A stretch of 64,000 bases of DNA from a phage. Below, one piece after another: positions 23,124 to 64,000 of this stretch. The position numbers and the translations under genes are program-made. A model generated the notes under the pieces. It was not told the origin of the DNA, searched no databases, and was given only the letters and a program-made list of their open reading frames with translations. The DNA lies in sequence record OZ346158.1, one strand, 5' to 3'. Numbering within the stretch: the stretch's first letter is position 1; each line of letters begins with the position of its first letter.

Positions 23124-23381
23124 CTAAACCATAGCTTCAAAAGGAGTCATGAACGAATAAACGGCATCATCATCTGCTTCAGGGAATGCTCCCAAAGACT
23201 TCATATCTGAACCCTTGACAAATACAAGGTTTTGATCAAAGGCTTCTTGGGGGTCAATCCGATACATATTTCGTAGAATATCGCTTACCTCCTCATCAAG
23301 AGGTGAGTATGCTGTGCACGTTTTTCCGATCAAGCTTTGAGAATCAGGGTATCCACCTGAAGTTTTAAAATAAACAATCAT
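23124..23381 (-). CDS. hypothetical protein
   Basis: ORF at end of - strand block. Confidence 0.5.
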   Translation of the reverse strand: MIVYFKTSGGYPDSQSLIGKTCTAYSPLDEEVSDILRNMYRIDPQEAFDQNLVFVKGSDMKSLGAFPEADDDAVYSFMTPFEAMV

Positions 23382-50686: not shown

Positions 50687-50754
50687 GGTTAAACCCTCCC
50701 TAACATTGTATGAGGTAACAATACCACGTCCGTGTGGTCATGTCAATGATACTG

Positions 50755-51453
50755 TTACAATCTTTCAGCAAGAGCCTTTGCGTAACACGCTTCAGCAGAC
50801 TCTTTGGTGTCAAACCTGCCTAGCGTTTTTCCTCTGAAAGTTACTTTCCATTTGCCCCTATCTGCTTCAAATCTGACACCTCTAGATTTATCCCTCCCTA
50901 AAGGCTGTCCACGATATTCCCTGACAAACGTGCCACTTTCAAAAGACTTTTGAGCAGCAAGGGCCTCTTCTAAGGTATCGTATTCTCCTAGGTCTTTCTT
51001 ATAGTAATGACCTACCTTACCAAAAGCAGCATACCTTCCAGTTCTAGCATGAAAATATACACCCAAGTGTCCAGTGTTAGATTTAGGTATCTTGCGTGCC
51101 AGGCATCCGTCATCTGCCGCCTTTTTTGCGTTTTCTTCTGGTGTTAACAGTTGTAGGTTTTCTATCCTGTCATCAGCAACACCATCGGAATAGAAAAGTG
51201 GCTTTATGTGATCAACTTCGTACCCTTCTGGAATTGGTCCATAATGCATCTCCCACACCAATCTATGCCTGTAGTAATGCACGCCGCGATAGATTATATC
51301 CCTGTACCCGTCCATGTTAGTACATCCAGCCTCCTTTCCCATCAGTTGAGGTTTGTTTTTTGGTGGGGACTTCCAAAACAACCTTCCAGTGCCTGTATCG
51401 TATCTAAAGACACTCCACCAGTCAATCCCGTTACTCATCTGTAACAACTCCAC
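50755..51453 (-). CDS. HNH endonuclease with AP2-like DNA-binding domain (free-standing)
   Basis: HRLVWEMHYGPIPEGYEVDHIKP...NLQLLTPEEN HNH core plus C-terminal AP2-like repeats. Confidence 0.75.
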   Translation of the reverse strand: MELLQMSNGIDWWSVFRYDTGTGRLFWKSPPKNKPQLMGKEAGCTNMDGYRDIIYRGVHYYRHRLVWEMHYGPIPEGYEVDHIKPLFYSDGVADDRIENLQLLTPEENAKKAADDGCLARKIPKSNTGHLGVYFHARTGRYAAFGKVGHYYKKDLGEYDTLEEALAAQKSFESGTFVREYRGQPLGRDKSRGVRFEADRGKWKVTFRGKTLGRFDTKESAEACYAKALAERL

Positions 51454-51919
51454 CTGCCTTCTTAAAGATCTCCAGCATCTTGTCTATACTTTCTGCTCGC
51501 TGATTGTACAGCTTTCCAGCCCCTGGCGGTGGTGGGAAGCTTGCCCAGCGGCTGCGGCATTTATAAATGGCCTGATGAATACGCCCTTCATCAATGTCGG
51601 CGAGAGCCTTGCACTCACGGATCAGTTGCAACGCAATCTTGTCCTGACTGTCAGGGCCAAAATCTGGTAATCCTAACTGTTTCATGTAGTGTTTAGCAAA
51701 CTTCTCCAAAACCTGGTAACGCCCAGCAGCGGAGGAGGTAAGTTTAGCATTTAGCTTAACGTAAACACCGGGATGCTTGCTGTAATCGCTGAACAGCTTG
51801 CCTCCGACTATGACATCGTACCCCCGATCCTTGGTAGGTTGTCTACCATTATCTGTGCCTTCCGAATATGCGATCATATCCAAGAAAGCTTTTCGTTGAA
51901 CATTTTTATCAAGTTTCAT
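51431..51919 (-). CDS. endolysin, lambda R-type lytic transglycosylase
   Basis: QRKAFLDMIAYSEGTDNGRQPTKDRGYDVIVGG...AGRYQ matches lambda R nearly residue-for-residue at the N-terminus. Confidence 0.9.
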   Translation of the reverse strand: MKLDKNVQRKAFLDMIAYSEGTDNGRQPTKDRGYDVIVGGKLFSDYSKHPGVYVKLNAKLTSSAAGRYQVLEKFAKHYMKQLGLPDFGPDSQDKIALQLIRECKALADIDEGRIHQAIYKCRSRWASFPPPPGAGKLYNQRAESIDKMLEIFKKAGGVVTDE

Positions 51920-52043: not shown

Positions 52044-53327
52044 TCATTCCAGCACCTCCCAAGTGTCTGGGTTAACATTTCGGACGCAGATACCGACAGG
52101 GAATTGGTAGTTGTTGTCTTCTGTCCTTGCTTGATATTTGAAGGTGACAAACTTGCCGATCATTTCCTGCATCCTGTCATAGCTACGCTCCTCGTGCGTG
52201 CCTTTCATCTTCATTTTAACAATAACACCTTCCTTGTCAACACAGATAAGAACACCTTCATCATTCTTATCTTTCTCAACGTCAATAACTTTCACCTCTG
52301 CGTCGTTGAACTTTTTCCATTTCAATGCTTCAGATGTTCGCTGACCGTACTCGTATTTACCGCAGAAATTACGCATGATAGTACCTTCATATCCTTCGGA
52401 CATGAATATACCAACAGATTCTTCGCAATGATCAACTGTGTACGCAAGCTCTGCGTCAACAACCTTGATATGGTCAAGCATCAGAGTGGTAACGGTATCC
52501 TCTGCATCCATAAGATCCTTGCAGCGTCCAGACTCTGTTTCTGGATCCCACCACACCTTGTCGCTAGGAATATCAAAAATGTGATACTCCAGATCGTAGC
52601 TACAGTACCCACCGTAACGCAAATCATCACGAACAGGCTCAACATCGACAGGAATATCTACCTTGTTGAAGTTTTTGTATGTTGATAAGCCTGCCTTAAT
52701 TGCTGCATGACGGCGTTTTTTATCTGCCTCATAGTCTTTATCGATCTCGGCCTGAATCTCTTCCTGTGTGCGCCACCGTTTAGCAAGAGACACTATTTTC
52801 TGCAAAGGAAGACCATGAATGTATAGTTCCCCATCAAGTTGTTTAATCCCAGTGGTAGAATGGAAAGAACGAAGTTGCTCTAAAAGCTTTCCTTGAATAG
52901 GGTAGGACTTATTACCACGGGAAATAAATTTAGGCTCACCATTTTGGAAAACAACAAGCAGACGAAGGCCATCTAACTTACGCAAGATCCAGCAAGGTAA
53001 TTTAAGTGCCTTGCCACGCTTCAGGTAGTCATGCACCAGCATGGGTAAAAGATCAACACCCTGCTCGCAATCTTCCATGTTTTCAACATACCCCAGACGG
53101 ACTTGTTTTTCCCACTTGCTGATAGCCTCAAGCTCGGCCTGTTGCTCAGCTGTAGTCTCGTTGGCACGACCTACGTTCTTAGGTGTGCATACCGTCTCTT
53201 TGTACTGCAGTTTACCATCAAGCTTGCCAAACTCTACGATAACCTTATCACCATCCGTGAATACTTTCCACTGTTGGTAGCTGCCATCTTTATTCAGTGC
53301 GTACAGTGTTGTTTTGATCTGATGCAT
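52044..53327 (-). CDS. DNA ligase (nucleotidyltransferase motifs I/IV/V)
   Basis: Motif I KLDGLR, motif IV EGTIMR, motif V LKWKKF. Confidence 0.7.
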   Translation of the reverse strand: MHQIKTTLYALNKDGSYQQWKVFTDGDKVIVEFGKLDGKLQYKETVCTPKNVGRANETTAEQQAELEAISKWEKQVRLGYVENMEDCEQGVDLLPMLVHDYLKRGKALKLPCWILRKLDGLRLLVVFQNGEPKFISRGNKSYPIQGKLLEQLRSFHSTTGIKQLDGELYIHGLPLQKIVSLAKRWRTQEEIQAEIDKDYEADKKRRHAAIKAGLSTYKNFNKVDIPVDVEPVRDDLRYGGYCSYDLEYHIFDIPSDKVWWDPETESGRCKDLMDAEDTVTTLMLDHIKVVDAELAYTVDHCEESVGIFMSEGYEGTIMRNFCGKYEYGQRTSEALKWKKFNDAEVKVIDVEKDKNDEGVLICVDKEGVIVKMKMKGTHEERSYDRMQEMIGKFVTFKYQARTEDNNYQFPVGICVRNVNPDTWEVLE

Positions 53328-53891: not shown

Positions 53892-53953
53892 AACTGACTA
53901 CCTCACTGCATACTTTCCATAATAAGTAAAGCCGGGTAATCCCGGCTATGTTG

Positions 53954-54667
53954 TTAAATATACTCTGTTACATCCTTGAAGCTCGAAGGCTTCATAATCT
54001 TACCTTTACTGTCAAGGAATATAATAACTTTATTGCCGTTGTAGAACTCCTCTTTAGCAACGAAACCTTCGTAGCGACCACCAAAACGACGCTCAAGATC
54101 TTTAATCTCCAACTCGATGAGTTGTTCAGCAGGCATATCTGCACTGGCACCGTGTGAATGCCGTAGATGGTTGATCCGTGCAAACTTACTGTCATTAGAT
54201 TTTAGAACCTTCCGCATCATCCCACACACATCCCCGCTAAGCTGGAACAGCAAAGCTGTTGATAACTCCGCTAGTCGGTAAGCTGACGCTCTTTGCTTGG
54301 ATGTGTTTTTCGCAGCGATCAGTGTATCATAGAACTCACCGATCTTGAACTTAAGACCTCGCGGATTATCAAACAGGTTTGACCACTTTTCGTGGTTATC
54401 ATTAACAAGATAAGCTGCATAACTTGTGACAACGTGAAGATCGCAGGCCTCTTTTAGCAGGTGATCTCCACCATCACCTTTCTCCAGCTCTTCCAAAACC
54501 TCATTGAACTCTTCCTCAATGAAGCTAAGCTGTAATTCGAATGGTGTGTATGATTTTTTCACTTTAGCTGCCACACGGTTCCAGTTTTCCACCCAGTTGG
54601 CAGACCAAAGGTAGTTTTCAGGCTGGGACAGTTTTTCCAGGTTGTCGATCAGTTTAGTATTCAGCAT
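53954..54667 (-). CDS. MazG-like nucleotide pyrophosphohydrolase (tentative)
   Basis: EEEFNEVLEELEKGD...LLKEACDLHVV resembles MazG EExxE/D metal-binding helices. Confidence 0.45.
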   Translation of the reverse strand: MLNTKLIDNLEKLSQPENYLWSANWVENWNRVAAKVKKSYTPFELQLSFIEEEFNEVLEELEKGDGGDHLLKEACDLHVVTSYAAYLVNDNHEKWSNLFDNPRGLKFKIGEFYDTLIAAKNTSKQRASAYRLAELSTALLFQLSGDVCGMMRKVLKSNDSKFARINHLRHSHGASADMPAEQLIELEIKDLERRFGGRYEGFVAKEEFYNGNKVIIFLDSKGKIMKPSSFKDVTEYI

Positions 54668-54680
54668 TAAAGGTCTCCTT

Positions 54681-55442
54681 TTAAAGTTCCATAAAGTTTT
54701 CTACAGTTTCAATAAATGCTTTATCAGAGAAAGCGTCAACAGCACCGTTAAACCATACAGGGATCCCGCGATCCTCATATTGATAAAGGTCGCTACGTGA
54801 AATGCCACTTCCATCTGCACTCTGCGAATCATACTTGTTTACAATCAGCAGTTTTGTGCCTTTACAAGTAGCAGGAAACAATTCCCAGTTAAAATTAATA
54901 ACTGTGTTAGAACAACCTACCAGGATCACCATATCATTGCTTGTGAGAGATGTCAACAGGTCATACATGTCTGTATACTTAGGAGCAACCTCACCGAAGA
55001 ACACTACATTGGGCTTAACCCAGGTATACTTGCCTGTATCTACCTCCGTGTATCCGATATTTTTAATTACATCATTACCTTCAGCATCTTCGTAGGTGAT
55101 TTCAGGCAAATACCCGTGGACATGTAAAATATCTTCATGTTTTACACCAGCACGCTCCAGCAAATCATCTACATTGGTAGTAAGGTTGATCACACGACCA
55201 GACCAGCGGGAATACCACTCAGCGATCCGAAGATGTGCAAGGTTAGGATCAACACTGCCCAGAGCTACACGACGTGCATTGTAAAAGTCATGCACCTTAT
55301 AGTAGTTCTTGGCAAAGGTGTGGATGTTGCACACCTCATCGATGCTGAAATTCTCCCACATTGCAGTGCTACCAGATCGGAAAGTGGGAATACCAGATTC
55401 AGCGCTCAAACCAGCACCGGAGATAATAATCAGTCGTCGCAT
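54681..55442 (-). CDS. Sir2-family NAD-dependent deacylase / ADP-ribosyltransferase
   Basis: GAGLSAESGIPTFR, TTNVDDLLERAG, catalytic HVHG, PNVVFFGE; no obvious zinc-ribbon cysteines. Confidence 0.8.
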   Translation of the reverse strand: MRRLIIISGAGLSAESGIPTFRSGSTAMWENFSIDEVCNIHTFAKNYYKVHDFYNARRVALGSVDPNLAHLRIAEWYSRWSGRVINLTTNVDDLLERAGVKHEDILHVHGYLPEITYEDAEGNDVIKNIGYTEVDTGKYTWVKPNVVFFGEVAPKYTDMYDLLTSLTSNDMVILVGCSNTVINFNWELFPATCKGTKLLIVNKYDSQSADGSGISRSDLYQYEDRGIPVWFNGAVDAFSDKAFIETVENFMEL

Positions 55443-55450
55443 AAGTGTCC

Positions 55451-55801
55451 TCAGTAGATGTTTTGTTTAATCTCTATTCCAAACTTCTTGAATGAGTCAG
55501 CAGCAAGCATAAATTTACGAGCTGCCGATGGATTAGAAGTATGCACGAAAATAATCACGTTGTCAATAAGTGGTGGCTTTCCGAATACAAGTTTCTCCTC
55601 TAGCGCAGAGAAGCAGTCGTACCCTTCAAGCACTTCACCTAGATCATTGTCAAAATGCCACTCAGAAACGCGCCTGTAGAGCTTTCTATTATCGTTAATA
55701 AAATCCATGAACTCAGAAGAGTTCTTCAGCCAAAGAGCATCTTGGATTCCGTAATTTGACGGATCTCTCAAGTCATCTAGCCACACAATCAACTTCTTCA
55801 T
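55451..55801 (-). CDS. hypothetical protein
   Basis: ORF; start MKKLIVW overlaps upstream stop. Confidence 0.5.
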   Translation of the reverse strand: MKKLIVWLDDLRDPSNYGIQDALWLKNSSEFMDFINDNRKLYRRVSEWHFDNDLGEVLEGYDCFSALEEKLVFGKPPLIDNVIIFVHTSNPSAARKFMLAADSFKKFGIEIKQNIY

Positions 55802-56733
55802 TGCATATAGTCCTCGTTGTGAAAATAGCAATCAAGTATCTCACGGCGTTCCTGCTCCAGGAGGCAGTTCCACACATCTTCTGTGTAATTGCTACGAATG
55901 AAGTTTACCATGCCATAAAACTCTTCGTCAATACGTTTAAAGATATCATCATCCCAAATCTTCCAAGCTTTACCCCTCATTACGGCCTTCCGTGCCAAAT
56001 AGTATGGAGACTTGATCTTCAGCTGCAGGTCATAAGGGTAGTAAGGCTTACGGATCATATACCCTTCGCCCCTTGTTTCTGCAGCTAATTCTTTTGCATA
56101 GCTGAACGGGATTTCACGCAAAGTGTGAGGACGTTTTGCACCAAGGTATTTGGCAATCCCATCTAAAGCTGCTTCTGGTAGCATTATTCCAGAATCATTA
56201 TATCTGCAACCTATCAAATATGCGCCATGGTCTTCTTGAACAATATGCGGATCTGAAGGGTGACAAATTTCAAACATGAATGTCATGTTTTCATTGCCCA
56301 TAACCTTCTTGATAAGATCTAAATTACCACATTGCTCTTGGATGGTTTCCTTTGCAAGGTTACAATATGGAGAATCAAGAGACCCGGTTGTTGAGAACAA
56401 TAGGTCACCTTTATGAGATGATACCACACCAAGGAATCCGTTCTTTTTCTCTACCGCAGTCACAAGCTTATTGTCAGGCAGGTTGGTGGAGTTTTCTCCC
56501 AAGTTAAACACTTTTGTGAAGGGCCATGCCACAACATTTCCTTCATTACCTACAACAATGCCTCGGCACTCCAGTAAACGAGGGGACAAATGCCATAAAT
56601 TGTTGTAAAATACTTTTCTAGCATATTTATAGATCTTTAACCCGAGATCTGGGTAATACCTACTGGTTACAAGACCTTTGTCAACTAGGTCGTCTGCATT
56701 AAAATACTTCATCATACGTTCCTCATTTGTCAT
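55798..56733 (-). CDS. RNA ligase-like nucleotidyltransferase
   Basis: Motif I VEKKNGFLG (Kx[DN]G), motif IV GEGYMIRKP, motif V LQLKIKSP; divergently adjacent to kinase/phosphoesterase pair. Confidence 0.6.
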   Translation of the reverse strand: MTNEERMMKYFNADDLVDKGLVTSRYYPDLGLKIYKYARKVFYNNLWHLSPRLLECRGIVVGNEGNVVAWPFTKVFNLGENSTNLPDNKLVTAVEKKNGFLGVVSSHKGDLLFSTTGSLDSPYCNLAKETIQEQCGNLDLIKKVMGNENMTFMFEICHPSDPHIVQEDHGAYLIGCRYNDSGIMLPEAALDGIAKYLGAKRPHTLREIPFSYAKELAAETRGEGYMIRKPYYPYDLQLKIKSPYYLARKAVMRGKAWKIWDDDIFKRIDEEFYGMVNFIRSNYTEDVWNCLLEQERREILDCYFHNEDYMQ

Positions 56734-56833
56734 TTTGTCAGTCTATCCTGCCACACAAATAACCTAGTGTCAACACTTGAAATTAACAAAACAGTTAGAT
56801 ATACTATCGTTGAAATTAAAACGGAGGGTCACT

Positions 56834-57244
56834 ATGTCTAAAATGCTATATATCGTGCGTGGTCTACCAGGGTCTGGCAAATCAACACTGGCAAATGCGC
56901 TATCTTTAGAGGGTCTGTATCCACATTTTGAGAACGACATGTTCTGGTATGACGATGACGGCAATTACAACTGGGATGCAAGTAAAGTAACACTCGCAGC
57001 GAAATGGTGCAAAGATAACGTAGAAGATATGATGCGTATGGGATACGACCGTATCGTGGTAAGTAATACGTTTACAAAAGAAAAACATGTGCAGGAATAT
57101 GTTGACATGGCAATCAGTCATGGGTATAGTTATACCGTGATCGTGGTTGAAAACCGCCACGGTAATAAAAGCATTCATGATGTTCCAGACAAGGTTGTGG
57201 ATCGTATGGAACGCCAGCTTAAAAACTGCATTAAACTTAAATGA
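56834..57244 (+). CDS. P-loop kinase, polynucleotide 5'-kinase-like
   Basis: YIVRGLPGSGKSTLA resembles T4 Pnk kinase P-loop; SD aacggagggtcact. Confidence 0.6.
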   Translation: MSKMLYIVRGLPGSGKSTLANALSLEGLYPHFENDMFWYDDDGNYNWDASKVTLAAKWCKDNVEDMMRMGYDRIVVSNTFTKEKHVQEYVDMAISHGYSYTVIVVENRHGNKSIHDVPDKVVDRMERQLKNCIKLK

Positions 57245-57251
57245 GGAATGT

Positions 57252-57806
57252 ATGAAATACTTTGTAACAAGCGACACACACTTTCTCCACCAGCGGGTCA
57301 TGGAGTTTGATTCATGTCAAAAACACAGATCTCAGTATGATCACAATCTTGACAGTATGAATGCGGGAATCATCGCCGAATGGAACTCTGTTGTGTCACC
57401 TGCAGACACTGTGTTCCACTTGGGAGATATTGCGTGCACTAATGATAAGAATATCAACAACTTACTTCCAGATATTCTAAATATGTTGAACGGACATATT
57501 ATTCTTGTTCGTGGCAACCATGACACACGGACGACTGTCAGAATTATGAAAGAGTTCGGTCATGAGGTTGTAGATTATTACGAGCTTCGCCACAACAAGA
57601 ATTTGATCTGTATGAGCCATTACCAATTTGCAAAGTGGAACAGAAAGCCTCACGGATCAGTCCAACTGTTCGGTCATGCTCACGGAACCACACAACAGTT
57701 GTTTGGCAGGCAGCTTGATGTCGGTTGGGATGTGTGGGGGAGACTCTTACCATTAGAAGAGGCATACCGTATTGCAATGAGTCTTGCTATTGACAGCGGG
57801 GAGTAA
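57252..57806 (+). CDS. calcineurin-like metallophosphoesterase
   Basis: DTHF, GDI, GNHD, GHAH metal-binding motifs in order. Confidence 0.75.
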   Translation: MKYFVTSDTHFLHQRVMEFDSCQKHRSQYDHNLDSMNAGIIAEWNSVVSPADTVFHLGDIACTNDKNINNLLPDILNMLNGHIILVRGNHDTRTTVRIMKEFGHEVVDYYELRHNKNLICMSHYQFAKWNRKPHGSVQLFGHAHGTTQQLFGRQLDVGWDVWGRLLPLEEAYRIAMSLAIDSGE

Positions 57807-57853
57807 TCCCTGCTATTTTAAAGAAAATTGCCACACAAGGAGAATCAGGAGAT

Positions 57854-58204
57854 ATGAAAGATGGGGATAAGCTGCTATATCTTAAAGTCCCCCTTGAAAT
57901 ACTGTCTATGTCAAAAGTTTTGAATGACACAACTGGGGAGGTTGTTGTTCTTGACTTGTATGACAAGATCGTATACTGCTACCTGCACAACTGGTATAAG
58001 CTTGGAGGAAGTTCACGCTTCACACCCAGCACAAGGAAAATTGCAGCAGATGTTGGGATAAAGAAAACAAAAGCAGCAGCGTGCGTTAAAACTTTAGAAT
58101 GTGCAGGAGTGGTTGAAATATCCACACAAGGGAGAGGTAAAAGATGCACATTTTCCAAAGTTTTGCCACCAGAAGAGGTTATTCGAATGTCAACAACTGG
58201 TTAG
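57854..58204 (+). CDS. winged-helix DNA-binding protein (replication-initiator O N-terminal-domain-like, tentative)
   Basis: HTH segment TPSTRKIAADVGIKKTKAAACVKTLECAGVVEI; immediately upstream of iteron array. Confidence 0.5.
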   Translation: MKDGDKLLYLKVPLEILSMSKVLNDTTGEVVVLDLYDKIVYCYLHNWYKLGGSSRFTPSTRKIAADVGIKKTKAAACVKTLECAGVVEISTQGRGKRCTFSKVLPPEEVIRMSTTG

Positions 58205-60742: not shown

Positions 60743-60817
60743 GCCCTGTTAGCTTAGTGGATAAAGCAGCGGCCTTCTAAGCCGTTGACACTGGTTCGAG
60801 TCCAGTACGGGGTGCCA
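60743..60817 (+). tRNA. tRNA-Arg (anticodon UCU)
   Basis: Hand-folded cloverleaf: acceptor gccctgt/acggggt, anticodon loop cuUCUaa, T-loop ttcgagt, encoded CCA. Confidence 0.85.
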
Positions 60818-60821
60818 AATT

Positions 60822-60908
60822 GGGGAGTTATCCCGTAGAGGTAGCGGTGTAGACTGTAAATCTATTGTCATTGCGACTCGGGTGGTTCGACTCCACCACT
60901 CCCCACCA
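60822..60908 (+). tRNA. tRNA-Tyr (anticodon GUA), long variable arm
   Basis: Acceptor ggggagt/actcccc, anticodon loop ctGTAaa, T-loop ttcgact, CCA. Confidence 0.85.
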
Positions 60909-61022
60909 AATTTATATTTTTAGATGCATAAATAATACAGATAATGGCATTGATATTTATCGTCGTTTATACTAGTCACTAACTGCTCGAAAATCAGTGT
61001 CATTATCAGTATAATTTATAAA

Positions 61023-61113
61023 GGAGGGTAGGGAGCAATGGTGCTCAAGCGGTCTTGAAAACCGTCCCGTTGAGGATGACTCGATGATGGTTCGATTCCA
61101 TTACTCTCCGCCA
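61023..61113 (+). tRNA. tRNA-Ser (anticodon UGA), long variable arm
   Basis: Acceptor ggagggt/actctcc, anticodon loop ctTGAaa, T-loop ttcgatt, CCA. Confidence 0.8.
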
Positions 61114-61211
61114 CATTGTTGACCTTGTAATTAAGCGAAAGCCGGAAGCAGAACCGGATTATCAAATGTTACAGTCGTCATCGCCGACTAGCAACATGGT
61201 CAACATACTGA

Positions 61212-61308
61212 GCTAGGTAAGCCCTTTGGCAAGGGCGAGGATTTTTAATCCTGAAAATAGACGAGGTAGTCGTTGAATACATAGGTGGTTCGATTCCATC
61301 ACCTAGCA
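61212..61308 (+). tRNA. atypical tRNA-like gene (possible tRNA-Lys UUU with about 30-nt variable region)
   Basis: Perfect 7-bp acceptor gctaggt/acctagc, D-arm gccc..gggc, T-loop ttcgatt; anticodon arm imperfect; 97 nt. Confidence 0.4.
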
Positions 61309-61315
61309 CCTTTTT

Positions 61316-61388
61316 GCTGATGTAGCACAATCGGTAGTGCAATTGATTTGTAATCAATAGGTTGTAGGTTCAAGTCCTGCCATCAGCA
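61316..61388 (+). tRNA. tRNA-Thr (anticodon UGU)
   Basis: Acceptor gctgatg/catcagc, anticodon stem attga/tcaat, loop ttTGTaa, T-loop ttcaagt. Confidence 0.85.
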
Positions 61389-61392
61389 CCAA

Positions 61393-61467
61393 GGCCCTGT
61401 AGCTGGAAGGTTCAAGCAAGCGACTCATAATCGCCAGACGGTGGTTCAATTCCACCCAGGGCCACCA
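61393..61467 (+). tRNA. tRNA-Met/Ile2 (anticodon CAU)
   Basis: Acceptor ggccctg/cagggcc, anticodon loop ctCATaa, T-loop ttcaatt, CCA. Confidence 0.85.
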
Positions 61468-61478
61468 AATAGTAAATA

Positions 61479-61555
61479 CTCCGCGTAGCTCAGCTTGGTA
61501 GAGCGCCTGATTTGGGATCAGGAGGTCGAGTGTTCGAATCACTCCGTGGAGACCA
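61479..61555 (+). tRNA. tRNA-Pro (anticodon UGG)
   Basis: D-arm tagctcagcttggtagagc, anticodon loop ttTGGga, T-loop ttcgaat, CCA. Confidence 0.85.
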
Positions 61556-62375: not shown

Positions 62376-62659
62376 GAGTTGCTACACTGTTTATTGTGTG
62401 CTTGTTATTATGTGGGTGTGCAACCAGCGTTGAGAGAGAATACAAGATTGACCCTCCTGATGTAGGAAGGTTGATTGTTAAACCCCCGGAAGGTGCCATG
62501 AAACCACCTGCTAAAGCTATGCCTTTGAAGAAAGGTGCGCCAGATGCAGTGAATTCTGGCATTATGAGGGATAATAATCTGTCTTGTAGCAATGATAGAG
62601 CTAAATTGATCATTTTGCAAGACTATATTAGAACACTTTTTCCAAAGGAGAGAGGTTAA
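62372..62659 (+). CDS. o-spanin (Rz1-like outer-membrane lipoprotein)
   Basis: Lipobox LLLCGCA, Pro-rich mature region; start overlaps i-spanin stop. Confidence 0.65.
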   Translation: MRVATLFIVCLLLCGCATSVEREYKIDPPDVGRLIVKPPEGAMKPPAKAMPLKKGAPDAVNSGIMRDNNLSCSNDRAKLIILQDYIRTLFPKERG

Positions 62660-63084
62660 TGTCTAAGATTTACGGACCGTGTTCTGAAAAGCAGAAGATG
62701 ATCCTAGAAAACGATGCAGATATTTTGGTAATCGGCGGTGCCGCAGGGTCTGGCAAGTCGTTCCTCTTGCAATTGATGCCACTTAAAATTATTGATGACC
62801 CCCACAGCTCTGTGGTTATGTTCCGAAGAACAACCCCACAGTTGGAAGGTGAGGGTGGATTATGGCCTAAAGCAGTAGCTATTTATAGTGATCTGCCTGA
62901 AAACATTAAGCCAAAGTTTAGAGAGAAGGATCATAAGTTCATTTTTCCACGGTTTGATCCGAACACTGGCAAGTGGGATAGAAGCAAAAAGGGAGCTGTT
63001 GTAAAATACTGCCACATGGAGTATGTACAAGATAAGCTTAACCATCAGGGGCTTGAGTACACCATGGTTTGCTTCGATGAGGGT
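62659..63084 (+). CDS. terminase large subunit, exon 1 (ATPase N-terminus)
   Basis: Walker A GGAAGSGKS, Walker B MVCFDE then G-stop at intron border. Confidence 0.8.
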
Positions 63085-64000
63085 TAATTTGTAGCTCTCG
63101 TAAAACCTCCCTAATTGCGGGGAAATCTTTATTATTGACACCACCAACCTGTCATGGTAACATGACAGAGGCTTCGAAGAGAGATCGAAGGTATGGTAAC
63201 AGTGTGTTAATTTAGATAATCCGCAGCGAAGCATCCGAGAGGATGAACGTTCAACGACTAGTCGAAAGACGTAGAATCAAGCGATTCGAAACGGGAGGGT
63301 GAATGTGTAATACTAAGAAATGTATGGATTGCCAAAGAGTTCTACCTATTGATGATTTCTTTTTATCATCTAAGAGCAAGGATGGATACTCAGGTACATG
63401 CAAGGAATGCTATATGTACTACAGGAAGGGTGGATCTCGTAAAAACAAAAATATGGTTAAGAGAGATGATGCAGCATTGTTTATTCAAGACTTGCTGAAG
63501 AAAGGTGAACTTTTTGAATGCAAATCTTGTCATGAAAGTATGCTCGCTGATAGTTTTTACACAAAACGTGACTATGGTAAAGTATATCTGGTTACGAACA
63601 GGTGTAAGATGTGTGAAAAGTTTTATCAGATTGAGAAGAAATTTCACATAACAAAAGATGAATACTATCGTCTACTCTCAGATCAAGATCATAAGTGTGC
63701 CATTTGTAGAATATCCCTTGATGAGTATAGGACGCAAGGGTATAGAGATTTCTTTTGTGTTGATCATGACCATAAAACTGGTGCTGTAAGAGGGTTGCTT
63801 TGTGATAAATGCAACAGAGCTTTAGGTTTCTTCCAAGAGGATGAGGAAACTATTCTTAGAGCGGCAGAGTATTTACACATTCATAAGATATAGTCTGGTC
63901 TGCATGGAGACATGCAGCTGCCTGAAAATGGCGGGGCAAGACTAGCGACCTTGCCCGAACATAAACGACACAATTCGAATGGGAGCAGATAGACTACCTG
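63085..64000 (+). mobile_element. Group I intron in terminase large subunit gene (3' end beyond window)
   Basis: P-like aattgcgggga (63106), Q-like aatccgcagc (63220), R-like gttcaacgactagtcg (63250); contains endonuclease ORF; shares the 15-mer taatccgcagcgaag with the polymerase intron. Confidence 0.7.
63303..63893 (+). CDS. intron-encoded endonuclease (Endo VII / HNH-like)
   Basis: Zinc fingers CMDCQ..C and CVDHDHKTGAVRGLLCDKCN core. Confidence 0.8.
   Translation: MCNTKKCMDCQRVLPIDDFFLSSKSKDGYSGTCKECYMYYRKGGSRKNKNMVKRDDAALFIQDLLKKGELFECKSCHESMLADSFYTKRDYGKVYLVTNRCKMCEKFYQIEKKFHITKDEYYRLLSDQDHKCAICRISLDEYRTQGYRDFFCVDHDHKTGAVRGLLCDKCNRALGFFQEDEETILRAAEYLHIHKI

Follow-up and report, generated by a model that had tools for sequence, protein, structure and literature searches.

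Why does a phage keep an RNA ligase, a P-loop kinase and a metallophosphoesterase side by side with a sirtuin, an enzyme that spends NAD+? The question is raised by positions 53954 to 57806 of a 64,000-nucleotide stretch of phage DNA (sequence record OZ346158.1), analyzed here at its full length and referred to as the window. A preliminary description of this DNA had read the first three genes as a split RNA-repair module and the sirtuin, together with a MazG-like gene, as an answer to NAD-targeting host defenses. Our analysis indicates that the locus probably encodes a multiprotein tRNA healing-and-sealing system built on the same principle as the T4 pair Pnk and Rnl1, with each activity carried by its own small protein, and that it most likely mends tRNAs cut by bacterial defense nucleases.

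The window belongs to a Vequintavirus, an rV5-like myophage of Escherichia coli. Megablast of positions 53900 to 57900 matched 122 phage records, the best of which (99.8% at full length) were Escherichia phages AlexBoehm (Bas56), A6-1 and EduardKellenberger, all of them Vequintavirus, and, a few indels aside, AlexBoehm and the window are collinear throughout. All the open reading frames (ORFs) of the preliminary description were found at their place, with the ligase divergent from the P-loop kinase and the calcineurin-type phosphoesterase. The features of the locus are the following.

52044-53327: ATP-dependent DNA ligase (Pfam scan).
53930-53947: G+C-rich hairpin AGCCGGG-TAAT-CCCGGCT (terminator-like scan; 7-bp stem with 6 G-C pairs).
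53954-54667, minus strand: protein of the all-alpha nucleoside triphosphate (NTP) pyrophosphohydrolase superfamily ("MazG-like"), 237 amino acids (aa).
54681-55442, minus strand: Sir2-family sirtuin, 253 aa (PF02146, E = 6.9e-28, 98 bits; phrog_2162, E = 1.5e-108).
55451-55801, minus strand: cREC, a cyclic-phosphate processing receiver-like protein, 116 aa (PF20274 cREC_REC, E = 5.7e-14, 53 bits against a cutoff of 27; phrog_1479, E = 5.3e-34).
55798-56715, minus strand: T4 Rnl1-family ATP-dependent RNA ligase, 305 aa, at the head of its operon (PF09511 RNA_lig_T4_1, E = 1.4e-14, 54.9 bits against a cutoff of 28.3; phrog_562, E = 8.4e-66).
56716-56833: divergent intergenic region of 118 bp, putative control region (promoter scan and direct reading of the sequence).
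56834-57244, plus strand: P-loop polynucleotide-kinase-like protein, 136 aa (PF13671 AAA_33, E = 1e-10; phrog_2071; phrog_505 "polynucleotide kinase," E = 4.7e-10).
57252-57806, plus strand: calcineurin-like metallophosphoesterase, 184 aa (PF12850 Metallophos_2, E = 1.2e-6, and PF00149 Metallophos, E = 3.9e-6, both above cutoffs; phrog_547, E = 1.2e-51).

On the minus strand, the ligase, cREC, Sir2 and NTP pyrophosphohydrolase genes follow one another in this order with intergenic spacings of -4, 8 and 13 nucleotides (nt), the start of cREC overlapping the ligase stop by 4 nt. The hairpin at 53930 to 53947 lies directly past the last gene of this operon and is probably its terminator and boundary; its T tail is weak. 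The kinase and the metallophosphoesterase are transcribed divergently from the plus strand, and the phosphoesterase starts 7 nt past the kinase stop, so that the three enzymes are indeed separate genes on two strands and not one polypeptide. The intergenic region between both units is predicted to have a control function: it contains a sigma-70-like promoter on the plus strand (TTGAAA-17-TATACT, 56777 to 56805, with 10 of 12 positions matched in the promoter scan), a GGAGGG ribosome-binding site upstream of the kinase and, on the opposite strand, GAGGA upstream of the ligase start. The latter site and the agreement with the AlexBoehm annotation place the ligase start at 56715, the 311-aa ORF that reaches up to 56733 being only a mechanical maximum. 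The ORFs from 56777 (kinase) and 57147 (phosphoesterase) are likewise over-long, with the real starts at 56834 and 57252.

The translation of the ligase gene contains VEKKNGF, EGYMIRK and LKIKSPYY, confirming the KxNG, EGYMIRK and LKIK motifs from which a ligase-like nucleotidyltransferase had been recognized. Single-sequence searches of the PDB with the ligase and with the kinase gave nothing useful, which made it necessary to use profiles, each based on five or six homologues from phages (six in the case of the ligase). The ligase profile matched the T4 Rnl1 structure 2C5U (E = 2.8e-25) with all the nucleotidyltransferase motifs aligned: K90xxG93 to T4 K99, F148-E149 to E159, E217-G218 to E227-G228, and K233/K235 to K240/K242. 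These positions were invariant in the 6 homologues, and the motif I lysine and motifs III, IV and V are therefore present. The same search of solved structures found no Pnkp ligase domain at an E value of ≤1. Against the TIGR02308 equivalog (T4 RnlA), the protein scores 38 bits, below the cutoff of 242. It has 305 aa versus 374 aa in T4 Rnl1, and its alignment to 2C5U stops at T4 residue 286, soon after motif V, which would leave little room for a counterpart of the T4 C-terminal tRNA-specificity domain. Judged by these alignments, it is a divergent subfamily of the Rnl1 family, with relatives in 812 phage records. Since the phage has its own ATP-dependent DNA ligase at 52044 to 53327, the sealing of DNA does not call for an Rnl1-like enzyme.

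For the kinase, the best solved matches of the profile were Capnocytophaga Pnkp1 (4XRP, 4.3e-5), T4 Pnk (1LY1, 8.6e-4) and the kinase domain of Clostridium thermocellum Pnkp (CthPnkp; 4GP7, 5e-3). Across 57 homologues, neither the P-loop G10-x-x-G13-x-G15-K16-S17 nor D35 varies. The motif NRHG is invariant as well, and D35 aligns to the catalytic Asp35 (NRDD) of T4 Pnk. The AlphaFold2 (AF2) model, with a predicted local distance difference test (pLDDT) score of 93.1, retrieved in Foldseek the CthPnkp kinase (4JT2, 4GP6) and T4 Pnk (1LY1) as top matches (TM scores of 0.72 to 0.77), followed by O-phosphoseryl-tRNA kinase and mammalian PNKP, with nucleotide and metabolite kinases at 0.47 to 0.57. 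Profile and predicted fold agree in placing the protein nearer to polynucleotide kinases than to nucleotide kinases, as the preliminary description had supposed. It is thus predicted to fall in the polynucleotide kinase clade, a placement that, with such modest E values, does not amount to proof of the substrate.

In the phosphoesterase, the dinuclear-metal site (DxH, GD, GNH[DE], H, GHxH) is complete, with D8, H10, D59, N89-H90, H123, H142 and H144 all invariant. Its profile had as nearest solved structure the uncharacterized Aquifex protein aq_1665 (1XM7, E = 2e-17). From its gene linkage we predict an enzyme that heals RNA 3' ends, removing both 2',3'-cyclic phosphates and 3'-phosphates. 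A 2026 report of phage phosphatases countering aRES was considered as a possible description of this metallophosphoesterase and rejected; the enzyme in that report is a Macro-domain protein.

That these three proteins work together is suggested by the way their genes travel together. We surveyed 80 IMG/VR loci (L009 to L088) with ligase relatives at 33 to 90% identity, each taken with 10 kb of flank, scanned with profiles of every partner and collapsed into 45 clusters at 70% ligase identity. The strongest evidence for the role of the kinase is its fusion to the N terminus of the ligase, found in 10 of the 80 loci as proteins of ca. 430 aa with Pfam domains AAA_33 and RNA_lig_T4_1 (L040, 2209-3474; L043, 577-1875; L055, 9527-10825; and seven further loci). 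On the kinase side, the best 120 of at least 7985 homologues from a large protein database were all stand-alone proteins of ca. 130 aa, and the IMG/VR loci were the sole source of fusions. The kinase was either fused to the ligase or at most 1.5 kb from it in 33/45 clusters, and the phosphoesterase was within 1.5 kb in 35/45. The linkage of the triad is far above chance, and since gene order varies among lineages, it has been upheld through rearrangement. The divergent arrangement of kinase and phosphoesterase on the strand opposite to the ligase was seen in only one of the 80 sampled loci, the Vequintavirus one (L009). Beyond this genus, the triad was also found in Mydovirus, Justusliebigvirus, Pakpunavirus and Thalassavirus. 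As a side observation, the loci with kinase-ligase fusions had no recognizable metallophosphoesterase of the window family nearby.

With homology, fold, gene linkage and gene fusion all pointing in the same direction, we are fairly confident that ligase, kinase and phosphoesterase form the core of an RNA-repair system, as first suggested in the preliminary description. A host ribonuclease that cuts a tRNA would leave 2',3'-cyclic phosphate and 5'-OH ends. The metallophosphoesterase would then open the cyclic phosphate and take off the 3'-terminal phosphate, the P-loop kinase would phosphorylate the 5'-OH, and the Rnl1-type ligase would join the 3'-OH to the 5'-phosphate with ATP.

What, then, are the other three genes of the ligase operon doing? 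The sirtuin has the motifs GAGxSxESGIPTFR and TTNVDDL, the catalytic His109 (VHG) and the class III signature Y54-x-x-R57. Among solved structures, it comes closest to E. coli CobB (1S5P, 3.2e-21) and SIRT5, to both of which GAGLSAESGIPTFR, TTNVDDL and H109-G110 align, indicating a class III-like protein that nonetheless remains below every NCBIfam cutoff for CobB (122.6 versus 243). The four zinc-binding cysteines are missing, with no Cys at all in residues 111 to 150, and the same holds across 10 homologues from enterobacterial phages; in an alignment of 11 homologues, the Cys pairs are absent from the enterobacterial-phage clade, while a Streptomyces phage homologue retains CxxC...CxxC. The protein is 93% identical to the Sir2 of an rV5 isolate, and the clade is represented in 1023 phage records. 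In the T5-like phage HildyBeyeler, a single small ORF separates one of its members, a 56%-identical sirtuin, from a phosphatase of the HAD_SAK_2 type ("Swiss Army Knife RNA repair"; E = 1.2e-20), and there is no RNA ligase within ca. 6 kb on either side. This neighborhood ties the sirtuin clade independently to RNA-end chemistry, even without a phage ligase nearby. The order of genes in HildyBeyeler (L007, 6001-8324) is sirtuin, small ORF, HAD_SAK_2 phosphatase and two tandem DUF7415 proteins.

The presence of a sirtuin and a MazG-like gene beside the ligase had been noted before, overlooking the cREC gene that stands between the ligase and Sir2. Across 10 homologues, cREC has the invariants W-x-DD-x-RDP, HFDNDLGE, VH(T/S)SNPSA and K(F/Y)MLA, which keep the receiver-type set of DD, D, T/S and K. 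In phage alia, the "hol-like chemotaxis" gene beside the kinase was considered as a candidate cREC and discarded for its poor alignment (20% identity); the real cREC of this phage is the gene at 5604-5945 of L003. As for the "MazG-like" protein, its membership in the all-alpha NTP pyrophosphohydrolase superfamily stands, with EExxE...ExxD acidic motifs, a four-helix core and a conserved C-terminal beta-hairpin region (GKIMKPSSF), but it had no Pfam or NCBIfam match at all, the MazG family proper included, and dimeric dUTPases are nearest to it in fold. Its task may be to dispose of nucleotide by-products, or it may be a sanitizer of DNA precursors that merely shares the transcript, and a functional part in RNA repair is doubtful.

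Exactly this neighborhood was described by Iyer, Burroughs, Anantharaman and Aravind in 2022 (Viruses 14:1977; PMC9503650, section 3.7.3) as their sirtuin-centered configuration 2, for which they name two prototypes, Escherichia phage V5 (rV5) and Proteus phage Mydo. It comprises the sirtuin, a T4-like tRNA ligase, cREC (defined in 2021 by the same group; PMC7824862), a nucleotide kinase, a pyrophosphatase of the MazG superfamily and a calcineurin-like phosphoesterase, and shows no essential difference from the window locus. The authors proposed that the sirtuin removes an RNA 2'-phosphate as Tpt1/KptA does. Gene set and hypothesis are therefore already published, and as a description the locus is nothing new. 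What is added here is the divergent kinase-phosphoesterase unit, the fusions of kinase and ligase, a pyrophosphatase fold resembling that of dUTPases, the loss of zinc ligands in a sirtuin with Y-x-x-R and the frequent adjacency to NARP1 in other phages.

Following Iyer et al., the presence of cREC and a zinc-less sirtuin in the ligase operon makes a second, NAD+-dependent branch probable, which we offer as a hypothesis only. In this branch, the sirtuin would move ADP-ribose onto a leftover 2'-phosphate and thereby remove it, in the manner of Tpt1/KptA, and in relatives such as Mydo the NARP1 genes next door might recycle the ADP-ribose by-products. The sirtuin has no homology to Tpt1, and we consider it rather unlikely that RNA 2'-phosphate is its substrate. 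Also unlikely is the fuller version, with the sirtuin as 2'-phosphotransferase and cREC as cyclic phosphodiesterase providing a yeast- or plant-style "2'-phosphate" ligation route beside the T4-style one.

The NARP1 genes deserve some attention in this respect. Nampt-like genes were found within 5 kb of the ligase in 19/45 clusters and Prs-like genes in 15/45. The Prs/NAMPT pair corresponds to NARP1 (Adps and Namat; Osterman et al.), for which rebuilding of NAD+ has been demonstrated experimentally in phage Bas63, and the Macro protein is the ADP-ribose (ADPR)-1''-phosphate phosphatase (Adpp) of NARP1-AP. RNA ligase and tRNA go unmentioned in the NARP1 preprint. The triad lies within 5 kb of NARP1 genes, often with the Macro-domain Adpp, at L002 (1554-4101), L003 (870-3568), L004 (8325-11845), L005 (9738-12744) and L094 (4420-6254). 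Mydo has the full set of the window plus Prs/NAMPT, alia has all of it except Sir2, and both JG004 and Vibrio phage Chester combine the triad with Prs/NAMPT and the Macro protein. In the window, tblastn with the Mydo proteins was negative for NARP1, and none is annotated in the 99.8%-identical AlexBoehm genome; in place of NARP1, the Vequintavirus has Sir2 and cREC.

Several observations weigh against a tRNA-repair system of this breadth. Starting with the core, the phosphoesterase family is uncharacterized and its nearest structure has no known function, and its profile had no match at an E value of ≤0.1 to the Pnkp or lambda-phosphatase branch, the one known to heal RNA ends. The kinase belongs to a very large family (at least 7985 proteins at an E value of ≤1e-5), and among three genomic contexts examined from the kinase side, one had the ligase with NARP1-AP, one only the phosphoesterase and one neither, so that two of the three lacked a nearby Rnl1-like ligase. 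As for the 2'-phosphate branch, Rnl1-type ligases seal ordinary 3'-OH/2'-OH ends, as is known from T4, and a sirtuin that removes 2'-phosphates is thus not mechanistically required; no ligase of the fungal or plant Trl1 type, which depends on a 2'-phosphate, was retrieved with the ligase profile. Sir2 and cREC (within 1.5 kb) and the NTP pyrophosphohydrolase (within 5 kb) accompanied the ligase in only 3/45 clusters, which makes them accessories, and in relatives the NTP pyrophosphohydrolase gene is found at a distance of 3 to 5 kb, next to genes for DNA ligase and exonuclease. In the literature, we found no biochemical or genetic experiments on these proteins or on phage sirtuins in RNA repair. 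Finally, according to two recent papers, Vequintavirinae are still restricted by the tRNA-cleaving retron Eco2 (PMC12916289) and by the HEPN-bearing Retron-Kva2, indicating that the module is no general antidote.

The alternative that survives best, unlikely as it is, is that of a mosaic early-gene region in which only ligase, kinase and phosphoesterase cooperate. Sir2 would modify proteins of the host or the phage as a deacylase or an ADP-ribosyltransferase, the NTP pyrophosphohydrolase would serve DNA replication as a nucleotide-pool sanitizer of the dimeric-dUTPase type, and cREC would have an unrelated phosphotransfer role. The tightness of the operon, with its genes overlapping or nearly abutting, argues against it, as does the fact that cREC is known, according to its describers, only from RNA-repair and ADP-ribose contexts. 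Moreover, the zinc module of protein-deacylating sirtuins has been lost, and the Sir2-HAD_SAK link in T5-like phages is an independent point against it.

Very unlikely, in our judgment, is the combination put forward in the preliminary description, i.e., two separate counter-defenses, with the RNA-repair triad directed against anticodon nucleases and Sir2 plus MazG against NAD+-targeting systems. The proximity of the triad to Prs-like or NAMPT-like genes in 15 to 19 of the 45 ligase clusters (in Mydo, alia, JG004 and Chester, for example), sometimes with the Macro-domain ADPR-1''-phosphate phosphatase, suggests that in other lineages this region gathers tRNA- and NAD-directed countermeasures. 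However, NARP1 is missing from the window and from the whole AlexBoehm genome, and a sirtuin spends NAD+ and cannot restore it. PADLOC gave no defense-system match for Sir2, ligase, cREC, phosphoesterase or NTP pyrophosphohydrolase (the kinase had weak P-loop matches), its defense-type Sir2 models included. In addition, Sir2 is embedded in the ligase operon, 8 nt past cREC, its clade is tied to the RNA-repair HAD phosphatase in T5-like phages, and the supposed MazG is dUTPase-like in fold. The NAD-directed half of that proposal finds no support here.

Least credible of all is that kinase and phosphoesterase act on small molecules (NAD or ADP-ribose derivatives, or cyclic-nucleotide immune signals) and the ligase elsewhere, e.g., in tail fiber attachment like T4 gp63. 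In its favor, the triad often adjoins NARP1 or NARP1-AP, the phosphoesterase family is uncharacterized, and the T4 gp63 label "tail fiber attachment catalyst" has passed into many database annotations. However, this label was transferred from T4 by homology, with no data from these phages behind it, kinase-ligase fusion proteins exist, the kinase is nearest to polynucleotide kinases in both fold and profile, and the ligase retains every catalytic motif.

Returning to the healing-and-sealing system, one of its closest parallels is the tRNA repair of T4, where Pnk/PseT and Rnl1/gp63 counter the anticodon nuclease PrrC. Ligase family, kinase clade and the heal-then-seal logic are the same, but in T4 the kinase is fused to a HAD/DxD 3'-phosphatase, whereas the window has a stand-alone kinase and a calcineurin-type metalloenzyme, and T4 has neither a sirtuin nor a cREC partner. 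The preliminary description had compared the domain set with bacterial Pnkp-type enzymes. This comparison is valid at the superfamily level, as CthPnkp unites kinase, metallophosphoesterase and ligase in one chain and its kinase is the closest in fold to that of the window. It fails in detail, for the window ligase is of the Rnl1 type and not a Hen1-dependent Pnkp ligase domain, and the phosphoesterase belongs to another branch. No Hen1 2'-O-methyltransferase appears in the AlexBoehm annotation, which was checked by annotation only and not with a dedicated profile.

If the published hypothesis is right, a parallel could also be drawn with the fungal and plant Trl1 and Tpt1/KptA pathway, in which cREC would stand for the cyclic phosphodiesterase, kinase for kinase, ligase for ligase and the sirtuin for Tpt1, with NAD+ spent on the junction 2'-phosphate. 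Tpt1 has an ADP-ribosyltransferase fold and the phosphodiesterases are of the 2H type, whereas sirtuin and cREC are unrelated to them in fold, and the window ligase is nearer to T4 Rnl1 than to Trl1. NARP1 and NARP1-AP (Adps and Namat, with or without the Macro protein Adpp) are neighbors in many related phages and absent here; they rebuild the NAD+ that a sirtuin spends.

Effectors that cut tRNAs are a growing class of antiphage defenses, including PrrC, RloC, PARIS, several retrons, Cas13 and HEPN toxins, and to our knowledge phage RNA repair has hardly been studied outside T4. The remaining interest of the locus lies in the published prediction itself. The module is widespread, and it occurs in E. 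coli phages of the BASEL collection that are well characterized and amenable to genetics. Such phages could show whether split heal-and-seal systems shield against particular tRNases. If true, the action of a sirtuin on RNA 2'-phosphate would add to this fold a catalytic activity that is new for it.

The tRNA cluster that had been placed 4 kb away was confirmed, at 4.0 kb from the ligase start and 2.9 kb from the phosphoesterase stop.

60743-61555, plus strand: seven tRNA calls by ARAGORN, six of them also found with the Rfam tRNA model.

The set comprises Arg-UCU, Tyr-GUA, a doubtful Ser, a long-armed Lys-UUU-like gene, Thr-UGU, CAU (Met/Ile2) and Pro-UGG. These tRNAs might be substrates or substitutes, and we consider them only as context. 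The doubtful call, tRNA-Ser(UGA) at 61023 to 61113 (plus strand), was made by ARAGORN, falls below the Rfam gathering score and has no counterpart annotated in AlexBoehm. The gene at 61212 to 61308 (plus strand) is a tRNA-like sequence of 97 nt (35.5 bits in Rfam) to which ARAGORN assigned a four-base anticodon. By eye, it has the anticodon loop UUUUUAA, i.e., Lys-UUU, in agreement with the AlexBoehm annotation, and an extra arm of ca. 30 nt that is unusual for tRNA-Lys. PrrC and PARIS both target tRNA-Lys, so this variant could be a nuclease-resistant substitute.

The gene that follows the phosphoesterase (57854 to 58204, plus strand) codes for a small winged-helix/helix-turn-helix (HTH) protein, with DUF6945 and HTH_36 below cutoffs and a match to phrog_12838 "replication initiation protein" (E = 8.5e-80), and could be a regulator of the region. 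Mydo has a gene annotated "replication initiation protein," identified by annotation name only, between the repair genes and NARP1. Elsewhere in the window, some differences from AlexBoehm were seen. Approximately 6.4 kb of the AlexBoehm sequence is missing at position 23127. Just upstream of the endolysin gene, there is an insertion of ca. 790 bp (50750 to 51543) that contains an ORF of 232 aa (50755 to 51453, minus strand), which by eye resembles an HNH/AP2-type homing endonuclease. The gene for the terminase large subunit, terL (62659 to 63893, plus strand), appears interrupted, as identity to the AlexBoehm terL ends at window position 63083 (position 1107 of terL in that record). It is followed at 63303 to 63893 by an ORF with an HNH/endonuclease VII-like Cys motif, and the window ends before the remainder of terL. 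This interruption is probably due to the insertion of a homing endonuclease or an intron.

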